Below, piece after piece: positions 19,978 through 35,264 of a DNA stretch of 64,000 nt. The first letter of the stretch is position 1. Each line of letters opens with the position of its first letter. Below the pieces are notes generated by a model that saw nothing but the letters and a program-made list of their open reading frames with translations, had not been told where the DNA came from and ran no database searches. This DNA is from Thermoanaerobaculia bacterium (GTDB taxonomy: Bacteria; Acidobacteriota; Thermoanaerobaculia; Multivoradales; JAGPDF01). The stretch is taken from assembly GCA_031403995.1 (NCBI GenBank), contig JANNGS010000057.1:12173-76172 (forward strand). Direction: 5' to 3'. The position numbers and the translations under genes are program-made.

Positions 19978-20073
19978 TTGATTCTAAGGCCTTTGATGAG
20001 CGCCGTGCAACATCGGATTGGAGCCCTCTGAAACGCCCGGCTCGGGCAGGGCGTGCTAGTGTCCAACCCCGTC

Positions 20074-22023: not shown

Positions 22024-22125
22024 TCGGCGCGCGATTTGTTGCGCGGCAAGTCACTGATTCTGCTGCAGTTGCCTGCCTGAACCCGGGCGGTGGCCGGGGC
22101 TCGCGTGCTACGCTCCCCACCCGCC

Positions 22126-24075
22126 ATGGCCAAGACAGACTCGTCGACCGGCGTCGACGTCCATCTGACCTCCCACGCACCGATCATCCGCTCGCCGAAG
22201 GACCTGGCGCGGTTGGGGTTGGGTGCATTGGGAGTGGTCTACGGCGACATCGGAACCTCGCCGCTCTATGCCATGAAGGAGTGCTTCAACTCCGCGCACG
22301 GTGTCGCGCCGCTGCTCGGCAATGTGCTGGGGGTCCTCTCGCTGGTCTTCTGGGCGCTCACGCTGATCATCTCCGTCAAGTACATCTCTTTCGTGCTGCG
22401 GGCCGACAACCATGGCGACGGCGGCATCCTCGCGCTCCTCGCTCTGGTTACCGAACAGCGCAGTCACCCCGGCAAAGGCGAGACGGGCAGGAAGCGCTGG
22501 ACAGTCCTGGTCAGTCTCGCTCTGGTCGGCACGTCGCTGCTCCTCGCCGAGGGCATGATCACCCCGGCCATCTCCGTCCTCTCCGCGCTCGAAGGGCTCG
22601 ACATGGCGACCCCGATCTTCCGCCCCTTTATCTTGCCGCTGGCGGTCGGAATTCTCCTCGCCCTGTTTCTCGTCCAGCGCAAGGGCACGGCCGGGATCGG
22701 TGCGGTCTTCGGCAAGGTGATGCTCGTCTGGTTCGCGGCGATCGCGGCCCTGGGACTCCCGGCCATCCTCCGCCATCCGGAGGTGCTGGGAGCGATCAAC
22801 CCGGCGCACGCCGTGCGCTTCTTCGCCGAGAACGGGCTGCACGGATTCCTCATCCTGGGGTCGGTCGTTCTCTGCGTCACGGGAGGAGAGGCGCTCTACG
22901 CGGACATGGGACATTTCGGGCGCGGCCCGATCCGCATCTCCTGGTTCTCGCTCGTCTTCCCGGCCCTTCTGATCAACTACTTCGGCCAGGGGAGCCTGCT
23001 GCTCGAGCGCGGCACGAGTGCGGTGGCGAATCCGTTCTTCGGTCTCGCACCCTCGATACTCCTCTATCCGCTGGTGATCCTGGCGACCGCCGCGGCGGTG
23101 ATCGCTTCCCAGGCGATGATCTCGGGCGCCTTCTCGCTCGCCCAGCAGGCGGTGCAACTGGGCTATCTTCCACGGCTCTCGATCATCCACACCTCGGGCG
23201 AGGCGAGCGGCCAGATCTACGTGCCGGAGATTAACCGGCTCCTGATGGTCGCCTGCATCGCGCTCACGCTCGGTTTCCGCGACTCCTCCAAGCTCGCCGG
23301 CGCCTATGGCATCTCGGTCATGGGCGCGATGATCTGCACCTCCGTCCTGCTCTCCGCGGTCGCCATCCGGCGCTGGAAGTGGTCCCCCGCGCTGGCCTTC
23401 GGGCTCGTGGCCCTATTCCTCGCGGTGGAAGTTCCGCTCCTCCTCGCCAACATCCCGAAGATCGTCCATGGCGGGTGGTTTCCACTCCTGGTGGGGTCGG
23501 TCTTCTTCTTCGCCATGACCACCTGGAACATCGGCCGGCGCGCAGTGCGGAGCTTTCTCGAGCTCGGAAGCCTGCCGATCGACCCCTTTCTGGCCCGTCT
23601 CGAGTCGTACAACGCGCACCGGGTGAAAGGAACGGCGGTTTTCATGACCTCGGCGATGGGGGTGACGCCGCCGATCCTGCTGCACCACTTCAAGCACAAC
23701 AAGGTGCTGCACGAGAAGGTCATCCTGTTCACGATCGTGACCGAGGGTATCCCGGAGGTCCCGAAGCGGGACCGGATCCAGATGCGCGAGCTGGCACATG
23801 GCTTCAGCGAGGTCATCGCGCACTACGGTTTCATGCAGACGCCGAACGTGCCGCTCGCCCTGCGCCGCGCGGCGGAGCAGGGGCTCGAGTTCGACCCCGG
23901 GACGGTGAGCTACTTCCTCGGCCGCGAGACCATTCTCACCACCGGCAAGTCGCGGATGTCCGGCATGCGCAAGAGCCTGTTCGTCTACCTCGCCCGCAAC
24001 GCGCGGCCTGCCAACGCCTTCTTCCGCATTCCTCCGAACCGCGTCATCGAGCTCGGCGCGCAGGTCGAGCTTTAG
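22126..24075 (+). CDS. kup: Second KUP potassium transporter, a tandem paralogue of the preceding gene.
   Basis: It is about 80% identical at the protein level to the 20074..22023 product and carries the same GDIGTSPLYA signature. Confidence 0.9.
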   Translation: MAKTDSSTGVDVHLTSHAPIIRSPKDLARLGLGALGVVYGDIGTSPLYAMKECFNSAHGVAPLLGNVLGVLSLVFWALTLIISVKYISFVLRADNHGDGGILALLALVTEQRSHPGKGETGRKRWTVLVSLALVGTSLLLAEGMITPAISVLSALEGLDMATPIFRPFILPLAVGILLALFLVQRKGTAGIGAVFGKVMLVWFAAIAALGLPAILRHPEVLGAINPAHAVRFFAENGLHGFLILGSVVLCVTGGEALYADMGHFGRGPIRISWFSLVFPALLINYFGQGSLLLERGTSAVANPFFGLAPSILLYPLVILATAAAVIASQAMISGAFSLAQQAVQLGYLPRLSIIHTSGEASGQIYVPEINRLLMVACIALTLGFRDSSKLAGAYGISVMGAMICTSVLLSAVAIRRWKWSPALAFGLVALFLAVEVPLLLANIPKIVHGGWFPLLVGSVFFFAMTTWNIGRRAVRSFLELGSLPIDPFLARLESYNAHRVKGTAVFMTSAMGVTPPILLHHFKHNKVLHEKVILFTIVTEGIPEVPKRDRIQMRELAHGFSEVIAHYGFMQTPNVPLALRRAAEQGLEFDPGTVSYFLGRETILTTGKSRMSGMRKSLFVYLARNARPANAFFRIPPNRVIELGAQVEL

Positions 24076-24169: not shown

Positions 24170-25681
24170 GTGTTGATGGATTCCCCCGCAGAGTTTCGCG
24201 GAGTTCCTCCTGACCGTGTGCGGGTCGTCGTCGACCGCCCGCCGCGGCCCGCAGGCGAGTTCGTCCTCTACTGGATGATCGCCCAGCGGCGGCTCGGCTG
24301 GAATTTCGCTCTCGACCGGGCCATCGCCTGGGCAGAGGAGCTCGGCAAGCCGCTCGTCGTTCTCGAGGCGCTGCGCTGCGACTACCGCTGGGCGAGCGAC
24401 CGAATCCACCGGTTCGTGCTCGATGGCATGGCCGAAAACGCCCGGCGAGCGGTGGGCAAGCGCATTCTCTACATCCCCTACGTCGAGCCTGCGTCCGGCG
24501 CCGGCAAGGGGCTGCTGCGCGCGCTCTCGCAGCGCGCGGCGGTGATCGTCACCGACGACTTTCCTTGCTTCTTCCTGCCGCACATGGTCGACGGGGCCGC
24601 ACGCCAGGTCGAATGCCGTCTGGAAGCGATCGACGGCAACGGCCTTCTGCCGCTATCGGCGACAGATGCAGCTTCGCCGACCGCTTACGCCTTTCGCCGC
24701 ATTCTGCAAAAGAGGCTGCCCGAATTTCTGGAGTCGATGCCGGCGGCTGCGCCGCTGGATTCGCTCGCGGTCCCGGTGCTGGAAAAACTGCTGGTAAAGG
24801 GAGGTGCTCTGCCATGGGCCGGTGCCTCCGACGAACTGCTAGCCGGTTCGCCGGCAGCGCTGGCGGCATTGCCGATCGATCACTCCGTCCGGCCCGGCGT
24901 AGTGCGTGGCGGCAGCGCAGCCGCCGAGGCGCATCTCTCGACTTTCCTTTACCAGAAGCTTGTGCTTTACGCCGAGAATCGCAACCATCCTGACGAGGAG
25001 GGTGCGAGCGGCCTCTCGCCCTACCTGCACTTCGGACAGATCTCCGTGCACCAGGTCCTGCACGAGGTCGCGGCGGTGGAGAGGTGGTCGCCGGAAGACG
25101 TTGCCGCGGGCGCGTCCGGCGCACGCGCGGGCTGGTGGCGGATGTCGCCGCCGGCGGAGGGTTTTCTCGATCAGCTGGTGACCTGGCGCGAGGTCGGGTA
25201 TCACTTTTGTCACCACCGCCCCGACTACGACCGCTATGAGTCGCTGCCGCCCTGGGCGCTGGCGACTCTGGCGAAGCATTCGGGGGACTTGCGCTCGCCG
25301 CGCTACGAGCTCGACGACCTCGCCGCGGCGCAGAGCTACGACCCGCTCTGGAACGCCGCCCAGCGGCAGCTCGCCTTCGAGGGGCGGATTCACAACTACC
25401 TGCGGATGCTGTGGGCGAAGAAAGTGCTCGAGTGGTCGGCGACGCCGCAGGAAGCGCTGGCAGCGCTCATCGAGCTCAACAACCGCTACGCCCTCGACGG
25501 CCGGAATCCGAACTCGTACAGCGGCATCTTCTGGTGCTTCGGGCGCTTCGACCGGCCGTGGGGACCGGAGCGCCCGATCTTCGGCACGGTGCGCTACATG
25601 AGCTCCGCCAACACTGCGCGCAAGCTCCACCTGAAGGATTATCTGGCGCGCCACGCAGAGCAGGCTTCGCTGCCTAGCTGA
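24170..25681 (+). CDS. phr: Class II CPD deoxyribodipyrimidine photolyase.
   Basis: The N-terminal class II motif FVLYWMIAQRRLGWNFAL is present, and the C-terminal FAD-binding region has SPYLHFGQIS and NYLRMLWAK. The ATG at 24176 is an alternative start. Confidence 0.8.
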   Translation: MLMDSPAEFRGVPPDRVRVVVDRPPRPAGEFVLYWMIAQRRLGWNFALDRAIAWAEELGKPLVVLEALRCDYRWASDRIHRFVLDGMAENARRAVGKRILYIPYVEPASGAGKGLLRALSQRAAVIVTDDFPCFFLPHMVDGAARQVECRLEAIDGNGLLPLSATDAASPTAYAFRRILQKRLPEFLESMPAAAPLDSLAVPVLEKLLVKGGALPWAGASDELLAGSPAALAALPIDHSVRPGVVRGGSAAAEAHLSTFLYQKLVLYAENRNHPDEEGASGLSPYLHFGQISVHQVLHEVAAVERWSPEDVAAGASGARAGWWRMSPPAEGFLDQLVTWREVGYHFCHHRPDYDRYESLPPWALATLAKHSGDLRSPRYELDDLAAAQSYDPLWNAAQRQLAFEGRIHNYLRMLWAKKVLEWSATPQEALAALIELNNRYALDGRNPNSYSGIFWCFGRFDRPWGPERPIFGTVRYMSSANTARKLHLKDYLARHAEQASLPS

Positions 25682-25735: not shown

Positions 25736-25757
25736 GGTGAGAATGTAATATCATCAA
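25736..25757 (+). promoter_or_regulatory. Isolated AT-rich 17-20-mer (gagaatgtaatatcatcaac) immediately upstream of the metal ABC ATPase gene. It is a candidate Zur/Fur-family operator overlapping the promoter.
   Basis: The genome is otherwise very GC-rich. The imperfect inverted repeat ATGtaATAtcAT sits 4-25 nt before the start codon. Zur boxes are AT-rich palindromes placed like this before znu operons. Confidence 0.35.
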
Positions 25758-25760
25758 CGC

Positions 25761-26462
25761 GTGAGCGACTCCGCCGCACTCGTTCGCCTGTGCCGTGTCT
25801 CCTACCGCTTCGGCGCCGACGTCGTCCTCGACGAGATCGACCTCGAGGTCGTGGCAGGCGAGCGCCTCGCCCTTCTGGGGCCGAACGGCGGCGGCAAGAG
25901 CACGCTGGTGCGACTCCTCCTCGGCCTCCTGCGTCAGGCGACCGGAACGATCGACCGCCGCGCCGGCTTGCGCCTCGGATACGTTCCGCAGTTTCCCGCC
26001 TTCGACCGGCACTTCCCGGTGCGGGTGGAGGAGATGATTCTTCAGGGCCGCCTGCGCGATCGCAGCCGGCTCCGGCCGTTCGCCGCGACCGGTCCGCGCG
26101 ACCGCGGGCTGGTGGACGAGGTGATCGCGCGTCTCGACCTCGGAGCTCTGCGCCGCGCCTACCTGGACGAGCTGTCGGGCGGCGAGATGAAGCGGGCCCT
26201 GGTCGCGCGTGCTCTGGTAGCCGAGCCGGACCTGCTGATCCTCGACGAACCGACGGCGGCGCTCGACGAGCCTTCCCGCCGCGCCTTCTGGGCGCTGCTC
26301 GCCGGACTGCCGCAGAAGACCGCGATCGTTCTCGCCACCCACGACCTCGCGCCCGAGACCTTCGCGGCGAAGCGCGCCGCGCTCGTCGACCGCCGGCTCG
26401 AGCCGCTCGCGCTCAGCGGTCTGCACGTTCAGTCGCTGGTCTGCGGCCATGGACATGGCTGA
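25761..26462 (+). CDS. Metal (Zn/Mn-type) ABC transporter ATP-binding protein, ZnuC-like.
   Basis: It has Walker A GPNGGGKST, the signature LSGGEMKRALVARAL and Walker B LLILDEPTAALD. It is short (233 aa), as is typical of ZnuC/MntB. Confidence 0.8.
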   Translation: MSDSAALVRLCRVSYRFGADVVLDEIDLEVVAGERLALLGPNGGGKSTLVRLLLGLLRQATGTIDRRAGLRLGYVPQFPAFDRHFPVRVEEMILQGRLRDRSRLRPFAATGPRDRGLVDEVIARLDLGALRRAYLDELSGGEMKRALVARALVAEPDLLILDEPTAALDEPSRRAFWALLAGLPQKTAIVLATHDLAPETFAAKRAALVDRRLEPLALSGLHVQSLVCGHGHG

Positions 26463-27321
26463 GGCAGGGTCGCTCTTCGGCGCGGTGGCGGCGGCCTTCG
26501 GCGTGCCGCCGGCGGCGCTCGCGGCGGCGCTTCTCGCCAGCCTCCTCTGTGGCTTCGTGGGGACCGTCGTGGTGCTCCGGCGCCTGGTGGCGCTCGGTGG
26601 CGGAATCGCGCACGCCGCCTTTGGCGGGGTCGGTCTCGCTCTGCTGCTCGGTTTCGATCCGCGGATCGGCGCCGCGGGTGTCGCTGCCCTGGCCGCCGCC
26701 GCGCTCTCCCCCTTGCGGAGCGAGCGCCTGGCGCGTCTGGATGCGGCGATCGGCGTGCTCTGGGCGGTCGGCATGGCGACCGGGATGCTGCTGCTCTCCG
26801 GAGCTGCGCACAGCGACGTTGAGGTCGAATCGATCCTGTTCGGCGATCTCATGAAGGTGCGGCCGGCTGATCTCGCTCTGCTCGGCGGATTCGTCCTGGG
26901 GATGATCGCTCTGCTGCTTCTCTTCGGCCGCGAGCTCGTCGCGACTGCGTTCGACGACGAGCACGCCCGCTTGCAGGGCCTGCCGGTCGGCAGGCTTTCC
27001 TTCCTCCTGCTCCTCGTCGTGGCGCTCGCGGTGGTGGCGCTGCTCTCGCTGGTGGGCGTGGTGCTCGCGATCGCGCTGCTCGCCATCCCGCCGCTGGTCG
27101 CCCTGCGCCTTTTCCGCAGCCTGCCGGCGATCGTCGCCGGCGGCTGCGCGGTCGGCTCGGGAATCACCCTGGGTGGCCTGGCGCTCGCCGCGCGGATCGG
27201 CACACCGGCCGGCCCGACCATCATCCTGCTCGGAGGCGTTGCGCTGGGCCTGGTGCAACTCGTGCCTCACCGGGCCTTGCGCTCTTCGCGTCCCGCGCTA
27301 CCGGCGCGACCTTCGACCTGA
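26449..27321 (+). CDS. Metal ABC transporter permease, ZnuB-like (ABC-3 family).
   Basis: It has eight hydrophobic helices, and the ABC-3 permease motif ESILFGDL...D is present. It overlaps the ATPase gene. No substrate-binding-protein gene is adjacent. Confidence 0.8.
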   Translation: MDMAEAGSLFGAVAAAFGVPPAALAAALLASLLCGFVGTVVVLRRLVALGGGIAHAAFGGVGLALLLGFDPRIGAAGVAALAAAALSPLRSERLARLDAAIGVLWAVGMATGMLLLSGAAHSDVEVESILFGDLMKVRPADLALLGGFVLGMIALLLLFGRELVATAFDDEHARLQGLPVGRLSFLLLLVVALAVVALLSLVGVVLAIALLAIPPLVALRLFRSLPAIVAGGCAVGSGITLGGLALAARIGTPAGPTIILLGGVALGLVQLVPHRALRSSRPALPARPST

Positions 27322-27328
27322 CCCCCGC

Positions 27329-28063
27329 TCAGGGCAGCAGTCGGGCAAGCGCGCGTTCGACGCGCTGGTGGAGGTCGGGCGGGGCGCCGTAGAAAACTTC
27401 GCGGGTGTGGCCCGCAGTGTCGAACAGGAAGAGCGTCGGGACGGCGGAGAGATCGCCGAACTGGCGGGCGAGGTCCGGCGAGCCCATCGCCCAATGGAGC
27501 GGCAGGCCGAGGCCGGCGACGACTTTCTGCACGTCGGCCCGGTCGGACTCGATAGCCAGGGCGACCACCTCGAGCCGGTTGCCGTAGCGCTTCTCGAGCT
27601 CCCCGAGCCAGACCAGCGTCCCGCGGCACGGCGGGCACCAGGTGGCCCAGAACTCGACCAGCACGGGCCTCCCGGAGAGCTTGGCACTCGCCAGCAGGCT
27701 GCCGTCGAGCGCCGGAATCGAGAACTCGGGCAGCGTCACGAGAGCGAGCGCCCGGGACTCGGCTGCGGCGATGGACCCAGCATGGTCTGAGCGCAGCACG
27801 TCGCGCTTGCCGTCCAACACTTCCTGCAGCATCCGGGCGAGATCGTTGCGGAACCGCTCGTGGCTGCGGGCGTCGCGCCAGGGGGCGTAGCGTCCGGCGT
27901 TCTCGCCCTCGCCCTTGCCGTAGAAGCCGAAGTCCTTCGGCGTCGCGACCAGGATGTCGTCGACGAAGATCGCCGGATAGCGGGTCACGCCGAACCGCGT
28001 GGCGAGCTCCGAGTCGCCGTAGTTCTCGACCACGAAGCGCACTCGCCCCTCGAACCCCCTCAC
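27329..28063 (-). CDS. TlpA/ResA-like thiol:disulfide oxidoreductase (thioredoxin fold, WCPPC).
   Basis: The motif VEFWATWCPPCRG was seen in the C-terminal half, and the N-terminal half is also thioredoxin-like. Confidence 0.75.
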   Translation of the reverse strand: MRGFEGRVRFVVENYGDSELATRFGVTRYPAIFVDDILVATPKDFGFYGKGEGENAGRYAPWRDARSHERFRNDLARMLQEVLDGKRDVLRSDHAGSIAAAESRALALVTLPEFSIPALDGSLLASAKLSGRPVLVEFWATWCPPCRGTLVWLGELEKRYGNRLEVVALAIESDRADVQKVVAGLGLPLHWAMGSPDLARQFGDLSAVPTLFLFDTAGHTREVFYGAPPDLHQRVERALARLLP

Positions 28064-28102: not shown

Positions 28103-29239
28103 TCAGGTGTAGGGCCACCGGACGAGTGTCACGGTGGCCTCGGCGCGGCGGTCTGGCGAGCGGGGAGGAGCCGGACCGAGCACGACCGGGAAGTACGGCA
28201 GCACGTCGTCGAGGATCGCCGCAGCGATCTCGCCGCCGCGCGCCGCCGGGTCGGGATCGGCCGCCGAGAACAGGGCGGTGTCGAGAAACAGGCGCTGCAG
28301 GCTGGCGTCGCGAGGGCTTTCGTCGAGCCGGGCAGCGATCACGCTGCTGCGCCTGGCGGCCTCCTCCGCGGAGAGCGTGCGGCCAGGATGGGTGAGCCGG
28401 GAGAGCCGCGCCTTGGCGTCGAGGAGGCGCAGAAGCGCGCCGTAGCGCGCGCCTGCGTTGGCGAGCTCATCGGCCTCCTTGAGCAACGCACTGATACGAA
28501 TGAAGACGGCATGGCTGTCGATCGAGCGCGGCGGCGTGTAGGCCGTCAGGAGCTCGTCGCGCAGCGCTGAGATCGCGCCGCTGACGTCCCCGGGGGCGAG
28601 CGCCGGGAGGTCCACCGGCCGGCGGGGCAGACCGACGGCGAGGGCGATGAAGTCGCGCTGCGCCCGCGCGGCTCCGAGATAGAACAGGCCGTACTCGGGG
28701 GCGGTATTCCTGCCGTAGTCGAGGCTGGCGTCGTAGTAGGTCGGCATCTGGGCCAACGCCGCCTCGGCGAGCGCGCGCGCCGCCGCCGGCAGGAATTCGA
28801 AGGCGGGCCTCGGCCCCGGCGCCCGGTTGTTCCCCAGCTCGGGTCCCAGGCGCAGCCACTCACGTTCGAGCTCGGACATCTGGACGCGCAGGTCGCCGGC
28901 GATGCCACTGCGATACTCGGCGGCCTCGAGGTCGGTCCAGACCCTCTCGAGCCGCGCCAACGCCAGCCATCGCTGGCCCTGCGCGAGCGCCTGTTCGGCT
29001 TGGGCGAGCAACGGTGCGGAAGCAGCGCGAATGGCCTTCGCCTCGTCGTCGACCTCGTCTCCGACGGACGGGGTCGAGCGGACCCGCTCCTGCCAGCGCG
29101 CAATCGCATCGGCGAGCGGATCCTGGGCAGCCTGCGCTCGCAAGGGAGCTCCTGCGCAGAGCGTCAGCAGGCAGAGTACGGCGACCGGCGGAACCCGGGA
29201 GCCCGCGAGGTTCGCAGGGAAGGGTCGACGGCGACTCAT
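28103..29239 (-). CDS. Secreted hypothetical protein (Ala/Leu-rich, helical), co-oriented with the tlpA-like gene.
   Basis: The ATG at 29239 gives MSRRRPFPANLAGSRVPPVAVLCLLTLCAGAPLRAQAA, a signal peptide. The track ORF starts 15 nt upstream at TTG. Confidence 0.55.
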   Translation of the reverse strand: MSRRRPFPANLAGSRVPPVAVLCLLTLCAGAPLRAQAAQDPLADAIARWQERVRSTPSVGDEVDDEAKAIRAASAPLLAQAEQALAQGQRWLALARLERVWTDLEAAEYRSGIAGDLRVQMSELEREWLRLGPELGNNRAPGPRPAFEFLPAAARALAEAALAQMPTYYDASLDYGRNTAPEYGLFYLGAARAQRDFIALAVGLPRRPVDLPALAPGDVSGAISALRDELLTAYTPPRSIDSHAVFIRISALLKEADELANAGARYGALLRLLDAKARLSRLTHPGRTLSAEEAARRSSVIAARLDESPRDASLQRLFLDTALFSAADPDPAARGGEIAAAILDDVLPYFPVVLGPAPPRSPDRRAEATVTLVRWPYT

Positions 29240-29296
29240 AAAAGAACTACGCAAATCGGAGGGAAGAGTTTTTCCGCGGTGCGGGCAGTCTGACTG

Positions 29297-31480
29297 CTAG
29301 TGAATGTAGCCGAGCGCGCGGAGCTTCTGGCGCTCTTCGTCCTCTTCGAGCTGGCTGCGTGCGGCGCGCATGGCGTGGTTGCGCCAGACGAAGAGAGAGG
29401 CGCAGTTCGGATCGAGCGCGAAGCGCGGCACGCCTTCCACAATCCGTTCGATGTCGCGGCTCTCACCGGAAGGGATCGGTGCTCCGTTCCACCGTGCACA
29501 GCCGCCGGTCACGGTGATCCGCGCGCGGGCCGCCTTCGACTCCGGGAAGAAGACGCCGTCGACGTCGCCGGGCGGCAGTTCGAGGTCGAGCTCGACGGCG
29601 CCCGCCTCTCCCCGCAGCATGTCCTCGGGCTCGAGGGCGAACCGTTCGGCCCGGGGCTCGCCGGCCGCGAACGTGAGCCGCAATCGCCCTGCCGTGGCGC
29701 CGCCGAGAACCCGCACTTCGAGACCGCGGCGAGTGTGCGCCAGCGACGTCTCGATGGCGCGCCAATCGGCGCCCATGTCGTGCGCCGGCGCTGCGAGCAA
29801 CGCGCGCTCGAGCGGATCGGTAGCGAGGTCGAACCAGCCGAGCGCCGGCAGGAAGGACCGCAGGTGCAGCGCGACGCGGTTTCCCTTCGGGTCCGCCTGC
29901 GGGTCGGGGAGGCCGCGCGTGCCGAAGCGGTCGAAGAAGTGGAGCTTGGTGCTCTTGCGGACGACGACCGCGCGGGCGCTCCCTCCGGTCAGCATGTGAA
30001 TCGGCGGCAAGACCTCTCTCGTCCAGTTCTTCGGCTCGAGGAGATCGACCCCGTCGACCTTGCGACGCCGCGGTATCTCGAGCTGGTGCTCGATCGTCGG
30101 CAGGAAGTCGGCGAGGGAGAGGAGCGTGTCGGGCGGCACCGGAGGAAAGCGTCGCGCGTTGCCGGGACGGAGGAGGAAAGGCACCCGCAAGACCTCGTCA
30201 TAGAGCGACGGGCCGTGTTTCCAACCCCCATGCTCGAGGAACTCCTCGCCGTGGTCGGACAGGAAGACGAGGGTGGCGCGGTCGCGCAGCGCGGCGTCGA
30301 GGCCGTCCCAGAACTGCCCGATGAGGAGGTCGCCGTAGCGGACGTCGTCGTCGTACAGCGCGCGGAGGTGCTCGACATCGCGGGGCTGGAGCGTCGCGTC
30401 GAAGCTGAGGTCGAAGTGACTCTCGTCGCCGCGATAGCTGCCGGTGTATTCCGGGTCGAACGGAGTCACCCCCTTCGGCTGGTCCGGTCTCCCGTAGGGC
30501 TCGTGCGGCTCGATGAGCTGGAGGTAGAGCAGGAAGCGCTCCCCTTCATGGGCGCGGATCCACCCGGGAAGGCGCGCCAGCATGTCGCTCCCCGGCAGCG
30601 CCATCGAGGCCATCTCGTAGGGAGGCGTATAGAAAGTCGTGAATCCGCGGTGAAAACCGTTGTCGACGTTGAGCGCCGGGTTGGCGTTGAAATGGGCGGT
30701 CGACCAGCCGGCGAAGGCGAAGTCGTGCCCCAGCGTCGGAACGCCGGGGGCGACACCGACCGACGCTCCGGAATCGTCTTCCTGCCCCGCTGGCAGCATC
30801 CCGGTCAGCAGGGCGGCGACGGATGGGGTGGTCCAGGAGGCGAGCGCCCAGGCGCGCTCGGCCTTCCACGCGCCGGCAAAGATGCGATCGAGATGGGGAG
30901 TCGTCGGCCGCCGGCTGCCGTAGAGCCCGACCGCGTCGCGGCGCGTGGTGTCGAGGAGGAGGATGATCAGGGCGTCGTTTCGCGGGCTGGGCTGGACGAT
31001 CCGCAGATCCGAGATCACGATGCCGGCGGGGGAGTCGGAGCGGAAGCTCAGGACGGAGGGCGCGTCGGTGTCGATCTCCAGGTCCTCGTAGAAGAGCCCG
31101 GCTGCGGCGTCGAACGTCCGCTGCAGGGGGGGAAAGAGCGGCCGGCCGGGAGTTGGCGCCGGTGCCGCCGTCGCCACTGTCAGGGTGGCTGTCCCGGGCA
31201 CTTGCGCGGCCCACGCGAAACGCAAACGTCCTGTGGCCGCCCGCCCGAGCGGCCAGGTGAGCGACTCTCCGGCCGGAATCAGGACCCCTTCGTGGCGCAC
31301 CCGCGACGGCTCGATGACGGTGGCGGAGGCGGCGGTCGAGAGGTCGGGACGGAGCGCCGCCGCCTGTCGGCGTTCGCCGCAGGCGGTCAGGGCGAGCGAC
31401 GCCACAAGGCCGACGACCGCCCAGGCCGCGCGCGGCGGCAGGCGAACCGGCAGGCGGCGACCGGGCTCAGCCGCGGACAC
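29297..31480 (-). CDS. Sulfatase-fold (alkaline-phosphatase superfamily) lipoprotein with a long C-terminal extension. The formylglycine Cys is replaced by Thr, and the conserved Arg of the C-x-P-x-R motif by Val.
   Basis: The GTG start at 31480 gives the lipoprotein signal ...AAWAVVGLVASLALTAC. The metal-binding LLDTTRRD motif is followed by SWTTPSVAALLTGMLP in place of CTPSRAALLTG. The upstream 260 aa of track ORF 29297..32155 overlap fur and are low-complexity. Confidence 0.75.
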   Translation of the reverse strand: MSAAEPGRRLPVRLPPRAAWAVVGLVASLALTACGERRQAAALRPDLSTAASATVIEPSRVRHEGVLIPAGESLTWPLGRAATGRLRFAWAAQVPGTATLTVATAAPAPTPGRPLFPPLQRTFDAAAGLFYEDLEIDTDAPSVLSFRSDSPAGIVISDLRIVQPSPRNDALIILLLDTTRRDAVGLYGSRRPTTPHLDRIFAGAWKAERAWALASWTTPSVAALLTGMLPAGQEDDSGASVGVAPGVPTLGHDFAFAGWSTAHFNANPALNVDNGFHRGFTTFYTPPYEMASMALPGSDMLARLPGWIRAHEGERFLLYLQLIEPHEPYGRPDQPKGVTPFDPEYTGSYRGDESHFDLSFDATLQPRDVEHLRALYDDDVRYGDLLIGQFWDGLDAALRDRATLVFLSDHGEEFLEHGGWKHGPSLYDEVLRVPFLLRPGNARRFPPVPPDTLLSLADFLPTIEHQLEIPRRRKVDGVDLLEPKNWTREVLPPIHMLTGGSARAVVVRKSTKLHFFDRFGTRGLPDPQADPKGNRVALHLRSFLPALGWFDLATDPLERALLAAPAHDMGADWRAIETSLAHTRRGLEVRVLGGATAGRLRLTFAAGEPRAERFALEPEDMLRGEAGAVELDLELPPGDVDGVFFPESKAARARITVTGGCARWNGAPIPSGESRDIERIVEGVPRFALDPNCASLFVWRNHAMRAARSQLEEDEERQKLRALGYIH

Positions 31481-31841
31481 AGGTCGCGCAGCGTCCGAAG
31501 AGAGTGATGTCGTGGCTCTCGAGCTTGAATCCGCGGGGGGTGAGCGCGCGCAGGTCGGGAGGACAGGCGTCGACGTCGAAGACCCGGTCGCAGACGCGGC
31601 AGCGGAAGTGATGATGATGGTGCTTCCCGGCCACTTCGTAGCGGCTCGGGGCTCCGGGCAACTGCACCTCGGAGAGCCAGTGCTCTTCGACCAGAGCCTT
31701 GACGTTGCGGTAGATCGTCGCGATTCCCAGGCCCGGGACGTTCTCCTGCGCGACCTCCAGAGCCTCGGCCGGCGACAGTGGGCGATCGGCGCGCTCGAAG
31801 GCTTCGCGGATCGCCGCCCGTTGCTGGGTGTTCCTCTGCAC
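31467..31841 (-). CDS. fur: Fur-family metal-responsive transcriptional regulator with an HHHHH run and CxxC pairs; possibly Zur-like.
   Basis: The winged-helix region reads LSPAEALEVAQENVPGLGIATIYRNVKALVE, followed by GKHHHHHFRCRVCD and a C-terminal CATC. Its 3' end overlaps the sulfatase-fold gene start by 14 nt. Confidence 0.85.
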   Translation of the reverse strand: MQRNTQQRAAIREAFERADRPLSPAEALEVAQENVPGLGIATIYRNVKALVEEHWLSEVQLPGAPSRYEVAGKHHHHHFRCRVCDRVFDVDACPPDLRALTPRGFKLESHDITLFGRCATCVRG

Positions 31842-31869
31842 AAGCTGATTCTAGCCGCGCGGCGGCGCG

Positions 31870-31895
31870 CCAGGGGGCGCGCTTTTTCGTAGGAT
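31870..31895 (+). terminator. GC-rich hairpin plus T5 (GGCGCGCC-AGG-GGCGCGC-TTTTT) in the divergent fur / BNR-protein intergenic region. It is terminator-like, but no upstream plus-strand gene precedes it, so it may be an attenuator or leader structure.
   Basis: A perfect 7-8 bp inverted repeat followed by a T-run was seen in the sequence. It lies about 20 nt upstream of the GGGAGAG RBS of gene 31917. Confidence 0.3.
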
Positions 31896-31916: not shown

Positions 31917-34900
31917 ATGCGCACGCATTCGATGTTGAATCTGTCCGGACGGCTCCTGCTGGCCGCAGCGATCGTGGGGATCGTGGCGATCTCGACCGCG
32001 CCCGCAGCGCTCGGGGCCGCGGTCTCGACTCCTGTGGCCTCGGCGGGCGGCTTCGATGCCGACCTGCTCGCGGGGCTCGTACCGCGGTCGATCGGCCCGG
32101 CCGGGATGAGCGGCCGGGTCGCGGCGATCGCCGCGGTCGAGTCGAATCCCGACATCGTCTACGCCGGGGCCGCGACCGGCGGCGTCTGGAAATCGCTCGA
32201 CGGCGGCATCACCTGGAAGCCGATCTTCGACGACCAGCCGGTCGCCGCGATCGGCGCGCTCGCCATCGACCGCCGCAATCCATCGATCGTCTGGGTCGGG
32301 ACCGGCGAGGGCAACGTGCGCAACAGCGCCTCGGTGGGCAACGGCATCTACCGCTCGGCGGATGGCGGCGAGAGCTGGACCCATCTCGGGCTCGAAGGCA
32401 CCGAGCGCATCCATCGCATCGTGCTGCATCCCGACAACTCCGACGTCGCCTGGGTGGCGGCGCTCGGACGCGAGTGGGGAGAGAACCCCGAGCGTGGCAT
32501 CTTCAAGACGACCGATGGCGGCAAGAGCTGGAAGAAAGTGCTCTACGTCGACGAGAAGACGGGTGGTGCGGACGTCGCGATGGTGGAGGGCAGCCCCAAT
32601 CGCCTGTTCGCCTCGATGTGGCAGTTCCGCCGCTGGCCCTACTACTTCAAGTCGGGCGGTCCGGGCTCGGGGCTCTACAGTTCCCTCGATGGCGGCGAAA
32701 GCTGGAAGCGCCTCGAATCGGAGGACGGGCTCCCCTCAGGCGAGCTCGGCCGCATCGGGCTCGGTCTTTCGCGGTCGCACCCGGAGATCGTCTACGCGAT
32801 GGTCGAGGCAAAGAAAAGCGCGCTGCTGCGCTCGGACGACGGCGGACGGAGCTTCAAGGCGGTGAACTCGGAGCCCAACGTGAATCCGCGGCCGTTCTAC
32901 TTCGGCGAGCTGCGGGTCGATCCGCTGGACCCGAACCGGATTTTCAGCGTCGACTACACGGTGCGCCTGTCGAGCGATGGCGGCAAGAGCTTCGCCACGC
33001 TCGTACGCTGGGACGAGATCCACGGCGATCACCACGCGCTGTGGATCGATCCTGCAAACCCGCGCCATCTGATCACCGGCAACGACGGCGGCATCTCGGT
33101 GAGTCACGACGGTGGCAAGAGCAACCGCTTCGTCTCGAACCTGCCGCTGGCGCAGTTCTACCACGTGGCCTACGACATGGATTCGCCGTACAACCTGTAC
33201 GGCGGCCTGCAGGATAACGGCTCCTGGCGCGGCCCCTCCTCGGTGCGCCAGAACGGTGGCATCCGCAACCACTTCTGGAAGGCTCTCGCCGGTGGAGACG
33301 GCTTCGAGACCCTCCCCGATCCGACCGACTCGCTGCAGGGCTACGCCCTCTGGCAGGGCGGCAACCTGATGCGCTGGAACTGGCGCACCGGCGAGACCAA
33401 GGACATCAAGCCGGCGCCCTCCGCGGGCGTCCGCCTGCGTTTCAACTGGAACGCCGGGCTGGCTGTCGATCCCTTCGAGCCCGGGACCGTCTATCTCGGC
33501 AGCCAATTCCTGCACCGGTCGGCCGACCGGGGCGAGAGCTGGACGACCGTCTCGCCCGATCTGACCTCGAACAACTCCGAGTGGCAGAAGGCCGACGAGA
33601 GCGGCGGTCTGACGCCAGACGTCACCAACGCCGAGACCTACACCACGATCGTCACCATCGAGCCGTCGAAGAAGGAGCGCGGACTGATCTGGGTTGGCAC
33701 CGACGACGGCCGGCTGCATCTGACGCGCGACGGCGGCGCCAGCTGGACGAGCGTCGAGGGCAACGTCCCTGGCGTCCCCGCGAACACCTGGATTCCGGCG
33801 GTGCAGGCTTCGACGCATGCGCCGGGAACGGCGTTCGTCGTCTTCGACAACCATCGGCGTTCGGACTGGACGCCCTACGTCTACCGCACCGACGATTTCG
33901 GCAAGCGCTGGCAGAGCCTCGCAACGCCGGCGCTGCGTGGCTATGCGCTCGCCATCGTTCAAGATCCGGTCGATCCGGATCTCCTCTTCCTCGGCACCGA
34001 GTTCGGCCTCTGGCTGTCGCTCGACGGCGGAGCGCAGTGGACGCGCTGGTCGAACGGTTTCCCGACCGTCTCGGTCATGGATCTCGCGATCCACCCGCGC
34101 GAATTCGACCTCATCATCGCGACGCATGGGCGGGCGCTCTGGGTCGTCGACGACATCTCTCCCCTGCGCGGTCTGGGGGCGAAGGCGCTGGAGGAGAAGC
34201 TGCGCCTCTTCCCGGTGGCGGATCGCGCGCAGCACTGGCTGCTCGCGGAGGATGGCGGTTTCGGTTTCGGCGCGACCGAGTTTCGCGGCGCCAACCGGCC
34301 CTACGGCGCCGCGATCACCTTCGTGGCCAACGGCGACGAGGTGCCGCTCGCCGACAAGGATCGCGATCGCGACCGGCGCATCGCCGAGCGCAAACGGGAG
34401 ACGGCGGCGGAGAGCGCGGCCGCGAAGGCCGAGTCCGCGGCCGAAGCCGACAGCGAGAAGTCTGAGAAAGAAGAGTCCGACAAGAAGGAGGCTGCCAAGG
34501 CGACGCTGGAGATCCGCGACGCGTCGGGTCAGCGTGTTCGCCGGCTGAAAGTCGAGACGAAGCGCGGACTCAATCGGGTGTACTGGGATCTCTCTCGCGA
34601 CGGCTTCAAGCGCCCGCCTGCCGGGACACCCGAGGAGCCCGGTTTCAACCCGAGCGGCCCGCAGGTCCCGCCCGGGCGCTACGAGGCCGTGCTCACTCTG
34701 GGGGGCGAAGAGCGCCGGACGTTCGTCCACGTGCTCGCCGACCCGACCTCCGGCAACAGCGCGGCGGACTGGCAGGCGCGCTGGGCGGCGATCCTCGACG
34801 CCGGCGCCTTGAACGACTCGGCGGTCGCGGCGATCGAGCGCATCGGCGCGACGCGCCGCGATCTCGATGCCGTAGCGGAGCGCATCCGGCTCGCCAACGC

Positions 34901-35264
34901 CGAAGCCCTGCGCGACGAAACGGTGAAGGAGGCCGACCTGCCGCTCGCCAAGGAGGCGAAGGGCGTGCGCGAGGGGCTGGACAGGCTCGAGAAGCGCTTC
35001 TGGTGGCCGCGCGACACGGTGGGCATCACTCCCGACAGCGACATCCTGTCGCGGCTCGCCTACGTCCGCGGCTACCTCGGCTCCTCGTGGGACCGCCCGA
35101 ACCCGACCCACCTCGAGTATCTCCGGCTGGCGCGCCAGGAGCTCGACTCGGCCCTCACCGACCTCAACGCCTTCTACGCCAAGGAGGTCGAGACCTACCG
35201 CACGAGCCTCGCTACCGAGAACCTCACCCTCGTCCCAGCGCTCCTCCCGCTCGAGATGCCCTGA
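31917..35264 (+). CDS. Large secreted BNR/Asp-box (sortilin-Vps10 / GH74-like) tandem beta-propeller protein (1115 aa).
   Basis: It has the signal peptide MRTHSMLNLSGRLLLAAAIVGIVAISTAPAALG and many S-x-D-G-G-x-S/T-W Asp-box repeats (SLDGGITW, SADGGESW, TTDGGKSW, SLDGGESW, SDDGGRSF, SSDGGKSF, SHDGGKS, TRDGGASW, SLDGGAQW). A charged KDRDRDRR...EKSEKEESDKKE linker lies near the C-terminus. Confidence 0.8.
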   Translation: MRTHSMLNLSGRLLLAAAIVGIVAISTAPAALGAAVSTPVASAGGFDADLLAGLVPRSIGPAGMSGRVAAIAAVESNPDIVYAGAATGGVWKSLDGGITWKPIFDDQPVAAIGALAIDRRNPSIVWVGTGEGNVRNSASVGNGIYRSADGGESWTHLGLEGTERIHRIVLHPDNSDVAWVAALGREWGENPERGIFKTTDGGKSWKKVLYVDEKTGGADVAMVEGSPNRLFASMWQFRRWPYYFKSGGPGSGLYSSLDGGESWKRLESEDGLPSGELGRIGLGLSRSHPEIVYAMVEAKKSALLRSDDGGRSFKAVNSEPNVNPRPFYFGELRVDPLDPNRIFSVDYTVRLSSDGGKSFATLVRWDEIHGDHHALWIDPANPRHLITGNDGGISVSHDGGKSNRFVSNLPLAQFYHVAYDMDSPYNLYGGLQDNGSWRGPSSVRQNGGIRNHFWKALAGGDGFETLPDPTDSLQGYALWQGGNLMRWNWRTGETKDIKPAPSAGVRLRFNWNAGLAVDPFEPGTVYLGSQFLHRSADRGESWTTVSPDLTSNNSEWQKADESGGLTPDVTNAETYTTIVTIEPSKKERGLIWVGTDDGRLHLTRDGGASWTSVEGNVPGVPANTWIPAVQASTHAPGTAFVVFDNHRRSDWTPYVYRTDDFGKRWQSLATPALRGYALAIVQDPVDPDLLFLGTEFGLWLSLDGGAQWTRWSNGFPTVSVMDLAIHPREFDLIIATHGRALWVVDDISPLRGLGAKALEEKLRLFPVADRAQHWLLAEDGGFGFGATEFRGANRPYGAAITFVANGDEVPLADKDRDRDRRIAERKRETAAESAAAKAESAAEADSEKSEKEESDKKEAAKATLEIRDASGQRVRRLKVETKRGLNRVYWDLSRDGFKRPPAGTPEEPGFNPSGPQVPPGRYEAVLTLGGEERRTFVHVLADPTSGNSAADWQARWAAILDAGALNDSAVAAIERIGATRRDLDAVAERIRLANAEALRDETVKEADLPLAKEAKGVREGLDRLEKRFWWPRDTVGITPDSDILSRLAYVRGYLGSSWDRPNPTHLEYLRLARQELDSALTDLNAFYAKEVETYRTSLATENLTLVPALLPLEMP

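Follow-up and report, generated by a model that had tools for sequence, protein, structure and literature searches.

The stretch of DNA analyzed here, referred to as the window, is 64,000 nucleotides long and comes from a Thermoanaerobaculia genome. Its minus strand carries a gene for a Fur-family regulator and, overlapping the end of that gene, one for a sulfatase-fold lipoprotein. Two further reading frames follow, with a convergent pair of transporter genes beyond them.

25761-26462, plus strand: ZnuC/AztA-like ATPase gene, convergent (NCBIfam AztA, 1.8e-48)
26449-27321, plus strand: ZnuB/AztB-like permease gene, convergent (NCBIfam AztB, 2.1e-38)
27329..28063, minus strand: TlpA/ResA-like thiol-disulfide oxidoreductase ORF (Pfam Redoxin, 1.6e-13; NCBIfam ResA/TlpA)
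28103..29254, minus strand: ORF with a secretion signal and no family match, probable start ATG at 29239
29297..31480, minus strand: gene for a Thr-type sulfatase-fold (PF00884) lipoprotein, 727 aa
31467..31480, minus strand: 14-nt overlap GTGTCCGCGGCTGA, with the GTG start of the sulfatase-fold gene over the TGA stop of fur
31467..31841, minus strand: Fur-family regulator gene, 124 aa, GTG start (Pfam FUR, E 2.5e-20)
31848..31856, minus strand: -10-like element GGCTAGAAT, of putative function, ending 6 nt before the fur start codon

The TlpA/ResA-like ORF is the last gene of the minus-strand run. The ORF at 28103..29254 is possibly part of the same transcript as the enzyme gene, beside which it is not conserved.

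The sulfatase-fold protein comprises five parts.

31379..31480, minus strand: signal peptide ending in the lipobox L-T-A-C34 (evident in the sequence itself)
30986..31348, minus strand: N-terminal beta-sandwich, approximately residues 45-165 (AF2 block pLDDT about 66-94, mostly 87-94)
29726..30985, minus strand: catalytic core of the alkaline phosphatase superfamily (sulfatase fold), including the C-terminal subdomain, residues 166-585
29366..29725, minus strand: C-terminal beta-sandwich, residues 586-705, with invariant C661 and C693
29300..29365, minus strand: terminal helix ending K-L-R-A-L-G-Y-I-H, with the clade-wide L-[RK]-x-L-G-Y tail

Both the N- and the C-terminal subdomains of the sulfatase fold are present. 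The Pfam PF00884 match covers residues 171-463 (E 4.9e-29), and the fold, with its customary FDLxxDPxE motif, runs to about residue 585 (AF2 model, pLDDT 79.5 and pTM 0.83). A preliminary description of this DNA gave the protein a C-terminal extension of roughly 300 aa; half of this is the ordinary C-terminal subdomain, and only about 140 aa, a beta-sandwich plus helix with no known family match, are extra. The N-terminal beta-sandwich (about 120 aa), overlooked in that description, has no Pfam match even at E <= 10. It and the C-terminal beta-sandwich with its helix are the real additions to the fold. At the N terminus, a positively charged n-region and a hydrophobic core precede L31-T-A-C34, as in bacterial lipoproteins, and the lipobox Cys column is conserved in the orthologues that reach that far, several N termini being incomplete. 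Full-length orthologues fall into about 55 clusters, all from Thermoanaerobaculia/Acidobacteriota MAGs.

The active site is made up of five sequence elements.

30935..30952, minus strand: D177-T-T-R-R-D182, with D177 as first metal ligand and the invariant T178 in place of the second Asp of sulfatases
30818..30832, minus strand: T217-T-P-S-V221, with T217 the predicted nucleophile and V221 at the Arg position
30677..30688, minus strand: N-A-N-P, residues 265-268, at the putative place of the sulfate-binding K-x-H
30503..30505, minus strand: H326 in E-P-H-E-P-Y, equivalent to the His of EptA G-S-H-G-P
30215..30256, minus strand: D409-H410-G-E-E-F-L-E-H-G-G-W-K-H422, with D409 and H410 the predicted metal ligands

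In profile alignments to solved sulfatases (6hhm, 7oz8, and 6pt6), the formylglycine Cys/Ser falls at T217 and the Arg at V221, in agreement with the earlier reading that Thr and Val replace the Cys and Arg of Cys-x-P-x-R. The formylglycine motif (C/S)-x-(P/A)-x-R is absent from all orthologues, and across orthologues and clade the motif reads W-T-[TIM]-P-S, with V, M, or C at the Arg position. From the sulfatase metal site D-D...D-(N/H), D177, D409, and H410 are present. The DTTRRD metal region (residues 177-182), which had been described as kept, thus retains its first Asp, whereas its second is the invariant T178. The sulfatase K-x-H and the Lys at +13 are also missing. N-A-N-P, with A266, N267, and P268 invariant in orthologues, presumably stands at the K-x-H place, an assignment made by eye from motif order against the sulfatase G-K-W-H motif, rather than by structural superposition. 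H422 (+13) takes the place of the Lys, and K421, at +12 after the D-H pair, is not conserved in the wider clade. In the AF2 model, strand beta-1 (170-177) ends with D177, T217 occupies the N terminus of helix 217-226, and strand 402-409 ends with D409.

A Thr-nucleophile site of the phosphotransferase type had also been proposed, and profile-sequence alignment bears this out. All six metal-site residues of E. coli EptA are matched (hhalign, probability 86%), pairing D177 with Glu, T217 with Thr, H326 with His, D409-H410 with Asp-His, and H422 with the His of EptA Y-L-H-G. A Thr nucleophile, E/D, D, and H ligands, and additional His residues are therefore all in place. The set D177, T217, H326, D409, H410, and H422 is invariant in 25 orthologues, down to 44% identity.

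The wider clade was sampled as the best 146 50%-identity cluster representatives, drawn from 1.84 billion proteins. Among these best 146, Thr occupies the nucleophile position in 139 of the 140 that can be aligned there, D177 is present in 139/140 alignable sequences, and the H326 equivalent is found in 143/143. The N267 equivalent is Asn in 120/146, and at least 112 (>=77%) end in L-R-x-L-G-Y, a tail that occurs across phyla. The clade signature reads D-T...W-T-x-P-S...N...P-H-x-P...S-D-H-G-E-x(8)-H-G plus a C-terminal L-[RK]-x-L-G-Y; its elements are common to 139-143 of the best 146 representatives (the tail to at least 112), all are present in the window protein, and most of the relatives P0056-P0120 share them too. 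Judged by sequence, the window protein is a member of a very large, uncharacterized Thr-type clade of the sulfatase-fold branch. The exchange of Cys for Thr is no unusual substitution peculiar to this gene but the rule there, and SulfAtlas counts Thr in 30 of the 59 Pfam PF00884 seed sequences (PMC5066984). A PDB sequence search for a close Thr-type relative returned Cys/Ser sulfatases and phosphonate monoester hydrolases only. The Mn-arylsulfatase of E. faecium (9koq) was considered as a model and rejected, as it uses Cys61.

The regulator belongs to the Fur family, with a FUR domain of the winged-helix DNA-binding type, a His-rich motif, and two CxxC pairs. It has H75-H78, C81xxC84, and C118xxC121, all invariant in its subfamily, plus an extra invariant C93, while P21 occupies the position of the N-terminal His ligand of Fur/PerR. 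Among solved structures it is closest to Mtb Zur/FurB, Nur, and Cj Fur, all at ~1e-13 and matching about equally well in PDB alignment. At the Zur hinge (D) site, Asp/Cys/His/His, E58, H76, and H78 align with three of the Mtb Zur ligands, and Ala71 aligns with the fourth, Cys76. All NCBIfam equivalogs for metal specificity score far under their cut-offs. ZnuA/ABC-3 or ZnuABC-type genes lie near the regulator in the window, in L004 (where the ZnuC/ZnuB-like neighbors are the same), and in L036 and L038, and were not seen at the locus of another relative, L037. The regulator represents a widespread, highly conserved subfamily, often beside ZnuABC-type transporter genes. As the subfamily repeatedly adjoins such genes, as ZnuC/ZnuB-like genes (25761..27321) are nearby in the window, and as the best solved relative is Mtb Zur, the regulator most likely senses zinc (or manganese) in the manner of Zur. 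Members of the subfamily are also found in many unrelated gene contexts.

At the junction of the two genes, the overlap reported in the preliminary description is confirmed. The GTG of the sulfatase-fold gene is at 31480-31478 and the TGA of fur at 31469-31467, and a separate gene prediction, made on a second assembly of this DNA, starts the 727-aa protein at that GTG too and so recovers the overlap. The relatives L001, L003, and L004 likewise have a GTG that overlaps fur in this register, and in L002 an ATG stands 6 nt after the fur stop. The overlap, the lack of a terminator-like site between the genes, and the conservation of the junction in four relatives support co-transcription, as the earlier assignment to one operon had it, though a promoter inside fur may also serve the enzyme gene.

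Upstream of fur, GGCTAGAAT occurs once in the window and is kept at this place in L001-L004, though the remaining upstream DNA diverges. As the element ends so close to the start codon, the fur mRNA is suggested to be leaderless or near-leaderless. The 75-nt region between fur and the BNR gene holds two conserved -10-like elements, TAGAAT for fur and TAGGAT for the BNR gene on the other strand, and a GC-rich hairpin that is not conserved. A Fur box had been expected upstream of 31841, but this intergenic region has no AT-rich palindrome, and neither a Fur nor a Zur box was recognized in it. The znuC-like gene is preceded by a conserved AT-rich 22-mer, which has no second copy in the window, even at 3 mismatches, and no counterpart upstream of fur.

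The gene pair has a narrow distribution. Fur is directly upstream of the enzyme gene only in five close Thermoanaerobaculia genomes, the window and L001-L004. No fur match occurs within 6 kb on either side of the orthologues in L005-L022, where the locus has such upstream DNA, and in five orthologue contexts inspected in full none is nearer than 8 kb, the distance at which a fur gene lies upstream on the same strand in L028. Six orthologue contexts compared for a neighborhood that would name a substrate have none in common. Distant orthologues neighbor GT2, DegT, methyltransferase, and YfhO genes, GT87-like and GT2 genes, or uppS-cdsA-dxr-rseP, and in L032/L033 bfd-bacterioferritin genes follow the orthologue. 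Literature searches returned nothing linking the Zur regulon with a sulfatase and nothing relevant on Thermoanaerobaculia and sulfatases.

What the enzyme does must be judged from its active-site residues, which point to phosphoryl rather than sulfuryl or other chemistry, so that clade members probably cut or transfer phosphate groups. A genuine sulfatase with a different nucleophile or a different formylglycine residue would account for S1 sulfatases being the top sequence and fold matches and for the database annotation "sulfatase/arylsulfatase A-like". Yet every alignment puts T217 in the nucleophile's place, the motif W-T-[TIM]-P-S contains neither Cys nor Ser, and the Arg (V/M/C), the K-x-H (N-A-N-P), and the +13 Lys (His) are all replaced. 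As Thr cannot become formylglycine by oxidation (PMC5066984), the protein cannot be a formylglycine sulfatase, and we give the sulfatase reading almost no credence, in line with the earlier judgment that a true arylsulfatase is unlikely. A non-catalytic role in binding or sensing, such as that of the PbgA/YejM periplasmic domain, is very unlikely, since the six catalytic and metal residues are invariant in orthologues and in the wider clade, a pattern typical of active enzymes. Somewhat better placed, if still unlikely, is a phospho-headgroup transferase of the phosphoethanolamine or glycerophosphate type that decorates an envelope glycan or lipid, with a lipid anchor where EptA/LtaS have a transmembrane domain. 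The metal-site residues are those of EptA/MCR-1, the glycosyltransferase and uppS-cdsA-dxr-rseP neighborhoods of distant orthologues would suit envelope decoration, and the two beta-sandwich domains could bind a polymer. In EptA and LtaS, however, the membrane domain takes the headgroup from phospholipid, and the window protein has only a signal peptide; moreover, the orthologue gene contexts are varied, with none conserved, and no envelope-glycan genes adjoin the gene in the window.

The linkage to fur raises alternatives of its own. Independent transcription of the two genes, with the overlap a by-product of a compact, high-GC genome, is improbable. It would fit the absence of a Shine-Dalgarno-like sequence ahead of the GTG and the orthologues that overlap or abut other upstream genes (one for an unknown protein of 505 aa in L028, one for a pseudouridine synthase in L030), but the 14-nt overlap leaves no intergenic space, neither a promoter-like nor a terminator-like site separates the genes, and relatives conserve the junction. 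That the pair is kept in five genomes, with a conserved overlap, could reflect selection for co-expression. The preliminary description implied a functional regulator-enzyme module. In such a module the enzyme would serve metal homeostasis and its level would have to follow that of the regulator; it might, for example, release or scavenge zinc or iron from organic phosphate complexes or be a metal-sparing isozyme. We consider this slightly less probable again, even though the overlapping start is kept in 4/5 genomes including the window (the fifth having the nearby ATG), L028 retains its distant fur gene on the same strand, bfd-bacterioferritin genes follow the orthologue in L032/L033, and ZnuBC-like genes flank the window pair. 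Against such a module, the adjacency is lineage specific: L005-L022 have no fur match within 6 kb where that much upstream DNA is available, and the five fully inspected contexts have none closer than that of L028. The regulator subfamily also occurs in unrelated contexts, the AT-rich 22-mer comparison within the window found no shared operator, and a repressor that co-transcribes a metal-dependent enzyme with itself has no obvious metal logic. The linkage therefore seems to stem from a local accident of operon structure or from recent recruitment, and does not look like a conserved pairing of regulator and enzyme.

We accordingly favor, with reasonable though not high confidence, an extracytoplasmic, lipid-anchored, Thr-type metalloenzyme of phosphoryl chemistry that in this lineage only is carried in the transcript of a Zur-like regulator. 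Such an enzyme would bind Zn2+ or Mn2+ and activate Thr217, and a covalent phospho-threonine intermediate would form on a phosphate mono- or diester, to be hydrolyzed or to have its group transferred. The two beta-sandwich domains may bind or position a polymeric or surface substrate. In this lineage alone the gene has come to lie directly behind that of a Fur-family repressor, whose transcript, probably leaderless, would start at the conserved TAGAAT -10 box; with its GTG overlapping the fur stop codon, the enzyme would be made from the fur transcript. A further-reaching version strikes us as improbable. In it the LGY-tail clade, which spans several phyla, would form a class of phosphoesterases or phosphotransferases that act outside the cytoplasm, have gone unrecognized, and have a substrate of their own, for example phosphorylated envelope or environmental glycans. 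In this lineage the transcript of a Zur-like regulator would have captured the enzyme gene, making enzyme level follow metal status, and the Fur family would thereby gain a new logic of coupling regulator to enzyme.

The earlier sequence observation is thus correct, but neither the Thr/Val site nor the overlap with fur is unusual. The main value of the result is for annotation. Neither the window protein nor its many relatives annotated as "sulfatase" or "arylsulfatase A-like" can be sulfatases, and these proteins should be left out of sulfatase counts when metagenomes are surveyed for sulfur or glycan cycling. As the clade is large, with a fully conserved Thr/metal site, a conserved LGY tail, and no characterized member, one biochemical characterization would annotate very many genes. 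The fur linkage, a local arrangement, contributes little more than something to test, namely whether expression depends on metal in one lineage.

Compared with known enzymes, the core is by sequence and fold slightly closer to true sulfatases than to LtaS/EptA. Whereas S1 sulfatases (human ARSA, P. aeruginosa AtsA, and Bacteroides carbohydrate sulfatases) have a Cys/Ser nucleophile, the window protein has Thr, with Val/Met/Cys for Arg, Thr for the second metal Asp, N-A-N-P for K-x-H, and His for Lys, and it adds the N- and C-terminal beta-sandwiches and the LGY tail. In EptA/MCR-1, the one- or two-metal site is matched residue for residue by D177/D409/H410 and H326/H422, except that the first metal ligand is Glu in the EptA group and Asp here. 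EptA/MCR-1/EptC and LtaS/LtaP have an N-terminal multi-pass membrane domain; in contrast, the window protein has a lipoprotein anchor only, a 34-residue signal followed directly by a beta-sandwich. NCBIfam models for EptA, CptA, and MCR give 16-42 bits against cut-offs of 404-1250 (e.g., ~42 versus 561). NPP enzymes (PF01663), which belong to this superfamily too and are extracytoplasmic phosphodiesterases, either soluble or anchored, likewise have a Thr nucleophile in T-x-P, and the window protein does not rise above the PF01663 gathering score.

Among regulators, Zur (M. tuberculosis FurB and S. coelicolor Zur) is nearest, Mtb Zur 2o03 being the best solved relative (E 1.5e-13). Two CxxC pairs, an H-H-H-H-H run, and znuABC-type neighbors are common to both, and both lack the N-terminal His ligand of Fur/PerR. 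Unlike Zur, the window regulator has Ala71 for the hinge-site Cys and its own invariant C93. The coupling of regulator and enzyme, described earlier as unusual, has a precedent in furA-katG, where a Fur-family gene lies directly upstream of an enzyme gene and is co-expressed with it (PMC2630230). Although the enzymes are unrelated, and the furA-katG pairing is conserved in mycobacteria with a known logic whereas that of the window is found in five close genomes only, in both a small gene for a Fur-family repressor directly precedes that of an enzyme, apparently in one transcript.

The Fur-family gene and the sulfatase-fold gene belong to a run of four successive minus-strand ORFs, namely fur, the sulfatase-fold gene, a secreted-protein gene, and a TlpA/ResA-like gene, in a window of ~70% G+C. 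The nearest relatives are all metagenome-assembled Thermoanaerobaculia/Acidobacteriota.

Genes surrounding the fur-enzyme pair
25761-27321, plus strand: ZnuC/AztA-like and ZnuB/AztB-like ABC transporter genes, convergent with the minus-strand run
27329-28063, minus strand: TlpA/ResA-like thiol-disulfide oxidoreductase gene
28103-29254, minus strand: gene for a secreted protein of 383 aa without a family match, probable ATG at 29239
29297-31480, minus strand: sulfatase-domain gene, 727 aa (PF00884 at residues 171-463, E 4.9e-29)
31467-31841, minus strand: Fur-family gene, 124 aa, GTG start (Pfam FUR, E 2.5e-20)
31917-35264, divergent from fur: gene for a BNR/sortilin-type protein, 1115 aa

The redoxin domain of the TlpA/ResA-like ORF (27329-28063, minus strand) spans residues 110-229 only, and its first ~100 residues (…RFGVTRYPAIFVDD…) resemble the C-terminal part of another thioredoxin fold; this N-terminal part could be a truncated duplication or reflect a mis-set start. 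Elsewhere in the window, two Kup-type potassium transporter paralogues of 656 and 661 aa stand in tandem (20053-24075, plus strand), followed by a photolyase-like gene (24170-25681).

The preliminary description of this locus concerned a real feature, partly mis-described. Its reading of the active site, with Thr in place of the formylglycine-forming Cys and Val in place of the motif Arg, is borne out: in profile alignments with solved sulfatases, T217 of the TTPSV motif (residues 217-221) takes the place of the formylglycine-forming residue, Cys in 6hhm and Ser in 7oz8, a position occupied by no other Cys or Ser, and V221 aligns with the motif Arg. Across 25 full-length orthologues, aligned at identities down to 44%, the invariant residues are D177, T178, R180, and D182 of DTTRRD (residues 177-182), S215-W216-T217, P219-S220, A266-N267-P268, P325-H326, D409-H410-G411, H417, W420, and H422. 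In an AlphaFold2 model (pLDDT 79.5, pTM 0.83), these residues take up the layout canonical for the alkaline phosphatase superfamily: D177 ends the first core strand, T217 forms a helix N-terminus, and D409 ends a strand. A profile-sequence alignment with EptA, using the Escherichia coli gene from MG1655 (274 columns, 86% probability), pairs the catalytic positions as follows.

Window-protein residues and their EptA counterparts in the profile-sequence alignment
D177: metal Glu
T217: nucleophile Thr of G-T-A-T
H326: His of G-S-H-G-P
D409-H410: D-H
H422: His of Y-L-H-G

The stretch S-D-H-G-E-E-F-L-E-H-G-G-W-K-H-G is near-superimposable on S-D-H-G-E-S-L-G-E-N-G-I-Y-L-H-G of EptA. In contrast to true sulfatases, the motif Arg is replaced by Val/Met/Cys in this protein and its relatives, the second metal Asp by Thr, and the Lys at +13 from the D-H pair by His. 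The sulfatase K-x-H presumably corresponds to N-A-N-P, a position set by eye against the sulfatase G-K-W-H motif rather than by computed alignment. Judged by sequence, then, all residues by which true sulfatases bind sulfate are replaced, the K-x-H position being placed by eye. The proposal that the DTTRRD metal region is kept thus holds for D177, invariant and matched to the EptA metal Glu, and fails for the second sulfatase metal Asp, which is Thr. With the sulfate-binding residues replaced and those of EptA matched, the chemical reading first proposed holds good: the protein is no sulfatase, and its Thr site is of the phosphoryl-transfer type. In NPP, LtaS, EptA, and MCR-1, a metal-bound Thr alkoxide gives rise to a covalent phospho-enzyme. 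Because of this shared mechanism, the most likely chemistry of the window protein is phosphoryl transfer, in which the membrane-anchored enzyme would either hydrolyse a phosphate mono- or diester or transfer its phosphate group, outside the cytoplasm.

Rarity of the site had been implied at the outset, which the survey does not bear out. Distant matches in a first search came from Binatia, Eisenbacteria, Planctomycetota, Vicinamibacteria, Myxococcales, and others, nearly all with W-T-x-P-[SA] and His at +13, and a HMMER scan of 1.84 billion cluster representatives returned 24,467 proteins at E <= 1e-30. Among the best 146 of these, 140 or 143 of which could be aligned depending on the position, D177 and T217 are each present in 139/140, H326 and H410 in 143/143, and D409 and H422 in 142/143, while N267 occurs in 120/146. 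Thr likewise replaces the catalytic Cys/Ser in 30 of the 59 Pfam PF00884 seed sequences, and Thr-type PF00884 proteins are not to be regarded as sulfatases (PMC5066984). T-T-P-S-V is therefore a mark of membership in a large Thr-type clade that is uncharacterised, and not a sign of a degenerate sulfatase. The enzyme gene adds a new member to this clade, very large and known yet uncharacterised; the gene's accessory domains are specific to its lineage. The clade can be recognized by the signature D-T / W-T-x-P-S / N / P-H-x-P / S-D-H-G-E…H-G / C-terminal LRxLGY; this signature and the correction of the annotation are the most useful outcomes of the analysis.

The C-terminal extension of roughly 300 aa proposed earlier is in part the sulfatase fold itself. 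The Pfam model ends at residue 463, and NCBIfam and PDB profile matches reach residues 533-558, taking in the usual FDLxxDPxE motif, which indicates that the predicted fold goes on past residue 463. Truly additional are a C-terminal beta-sandwich at residues 586-705, in which the cysteines C661 and C693 are invariant, and a terminal helix bearing the LGY tail; an N-terminal beta-sandwich (~residues 45-165), also extra to the fold, had been missed. The core, C-terminal sandwich, and tail co-occur beyond the orthologue group, since in relatives of the second tier (E 1e-80 to 1e-112) the profile match extends from ~157 to 728. The window protein ends in …KLRALGYIH, and at least 112 of the best 146 of the 24,467 proteins, like most of the homologues P0056-P0120, have L-[RK]-x-L-G-Y a few residues from the C-terminus. 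The tail may serve as a docking helix, oligomerisation signal, or sorting signal. In the longer form L-[RK]-x-L-G-Y-[VIL]-x (29300-29323, minus strand, in the window), it sits at the very end of most sulfatase-fold proteins of the Thr type, which come from several phyla (P0056-P0120, P0241-P0386); in one, P0108, TPR repeats follow and the motif is internal. C661 and C693 of the sandwich (29366-29725, minus strand) could form a disulfide, and the TlpA-like oxidoreductase gene lies two genes downstream.

The fur gene, with its stop TGA at 31469-31467, and the enzyme gene, with its start GTG at 31480-31478 in another frame, overlap by 14 nt, GTGTCCGCGGCTGA. This GTG opens MSAAEPGRRLPVRLPPRAAWAVVGLVASLALTAC34, a lipoprotein signal peptide that would be lost if the gene began at the next in-frame start, and an independent gene call on a second assembly of this DNA arrives at the identical 727-aa product and overlap. 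The junction is retained in the four closest genomes, with an overlapping GTG in the same register in L001, L003, and L004 and an ATG 6 nt past the fur stop in L002. A search between the two genes for terminator-like or promoter-like sites found none. Co-transcription, proposed earlier from the overlap, is well supported as a prediction because of the overlap, the retained junction, and the lack of such sites between the genes.

Upstream of fur, the sole element kept in all five genomes is GGCTAGAAT (31848-31856, minus strand), which contains TAGAAT, stops 6 nt short of the start codon, and looks like the -10 box of a leaderless fur mRNA. A -10-like TAGGAT precedes the BNR gene on the other strand in three genomes (31880-31895 region), and TAGAGT or TAGAAT stands directly ahead of start codons in the relative loci L036 and L028. 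The proximity of these -10-like elements to start codons suggests that leaderless mRNAs may be common in these organisms. The fur/BNR intergenic region also holds a GC-rich 8-bp hairpin followed by TTTTTCG (31864-31883, plus strand), terminator-like yet at no plus-strand gene end and absent as a conserved feature in L002 and L004. No operator was found upstream of 31841, where a Fur box had been suggested. The znuC-like gene is preceded, 3 nt upstream of its GTG, by an AT-rich 22-mer, GTGAGAATGTAATATCATCAAC (25736-25757, plus strand), that occurs once in the window and recurs unchanged in L004 between differing flanks. Only four 20-mers of the 64 kb reach >=70% A+T, and the 22-mer overlaps one of them. 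It may act as a promoter, a Zur-type operator, or both, and a search for a counterpart near fur found none.

The regulator carries an H-H-H-H-H run as well as two CxxC pairs, and its E69, D89, D96, and H110 stand where ligands usually lie. The protein differs from Fur/PerR by an invariant Pro in place of the N-terminal His ligand and from Zur by Ala in place of the hinge Cys. A fifth Cys, C93 (V-[DE]-x-C93-P), is invariant in the subfamily and, with the Pro, may define a distinct sensing site. The best solved relatives, Mtb Zur (1.5e-13), Nur, and Cj Fur, score almost equally, and all NCBIfam equivalogs fall far under their cut-offs. Because ZnuA/ABC-3 transporter genes lie nearby in three independent contexts (the window with L004, L036, and L038), we regard the regulator, with moderate confidence, as probably Zur-like (or Mn-responsive). 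The subfamily is much better conserved than the enzyme, at 60-93% identity over many lineages, one Roseateles genome included. At L036 (2072-4930), in a Thermoanaerobaculia-like genome, the Fur-family orthologue diverges from a gene for a 952-aa protein that combines Phytase-like and Exo_endo_phos parts, another secreted phosphoesterase-type gene adjoining this subfamily.

Of the orthologue loci, only the window and four relatives with >=70% identity have fur immediately upstream of the enzyme gene. At L028 (65% identity), fur is 8 kb upstream, separated by a CHAT/TPR protein gene, an ECF sigma/anti-sigma pair, and two unknown genes, one of which abuts the enzyme gene; in an orthologue at 58% identity, bfd-bacterioferritin genes come after the enzyme gene. 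At ~45% identity, the neighbors are GT2/DegT/methyltransferase/YfhO genes, GT87-like and GT2 genes with uppS-cdsA-dxr-rseP, or another YfhO gene. As the upstream fur is confined to five close genomes, other contexts differ, and the downstream genes vary even among those five, the pairing is a lineage-specific operon arrangement, which sets the enzyme gene behind a probably Zur-like regulator in one narrow lineage. Coupling of a Fur paralogue to an enzyme had been considered unusual; the pairing is narrow here, and a precedent exists in furA-katG of mycobacteria, where a Fur-family gene is directly upstream of, and co-expressed with, an enzyme gene (PMC2630230). Common to furA-katG and the fur-enzyme pair is a Fur-family gene immediately 5' of the gene for an enzyme.
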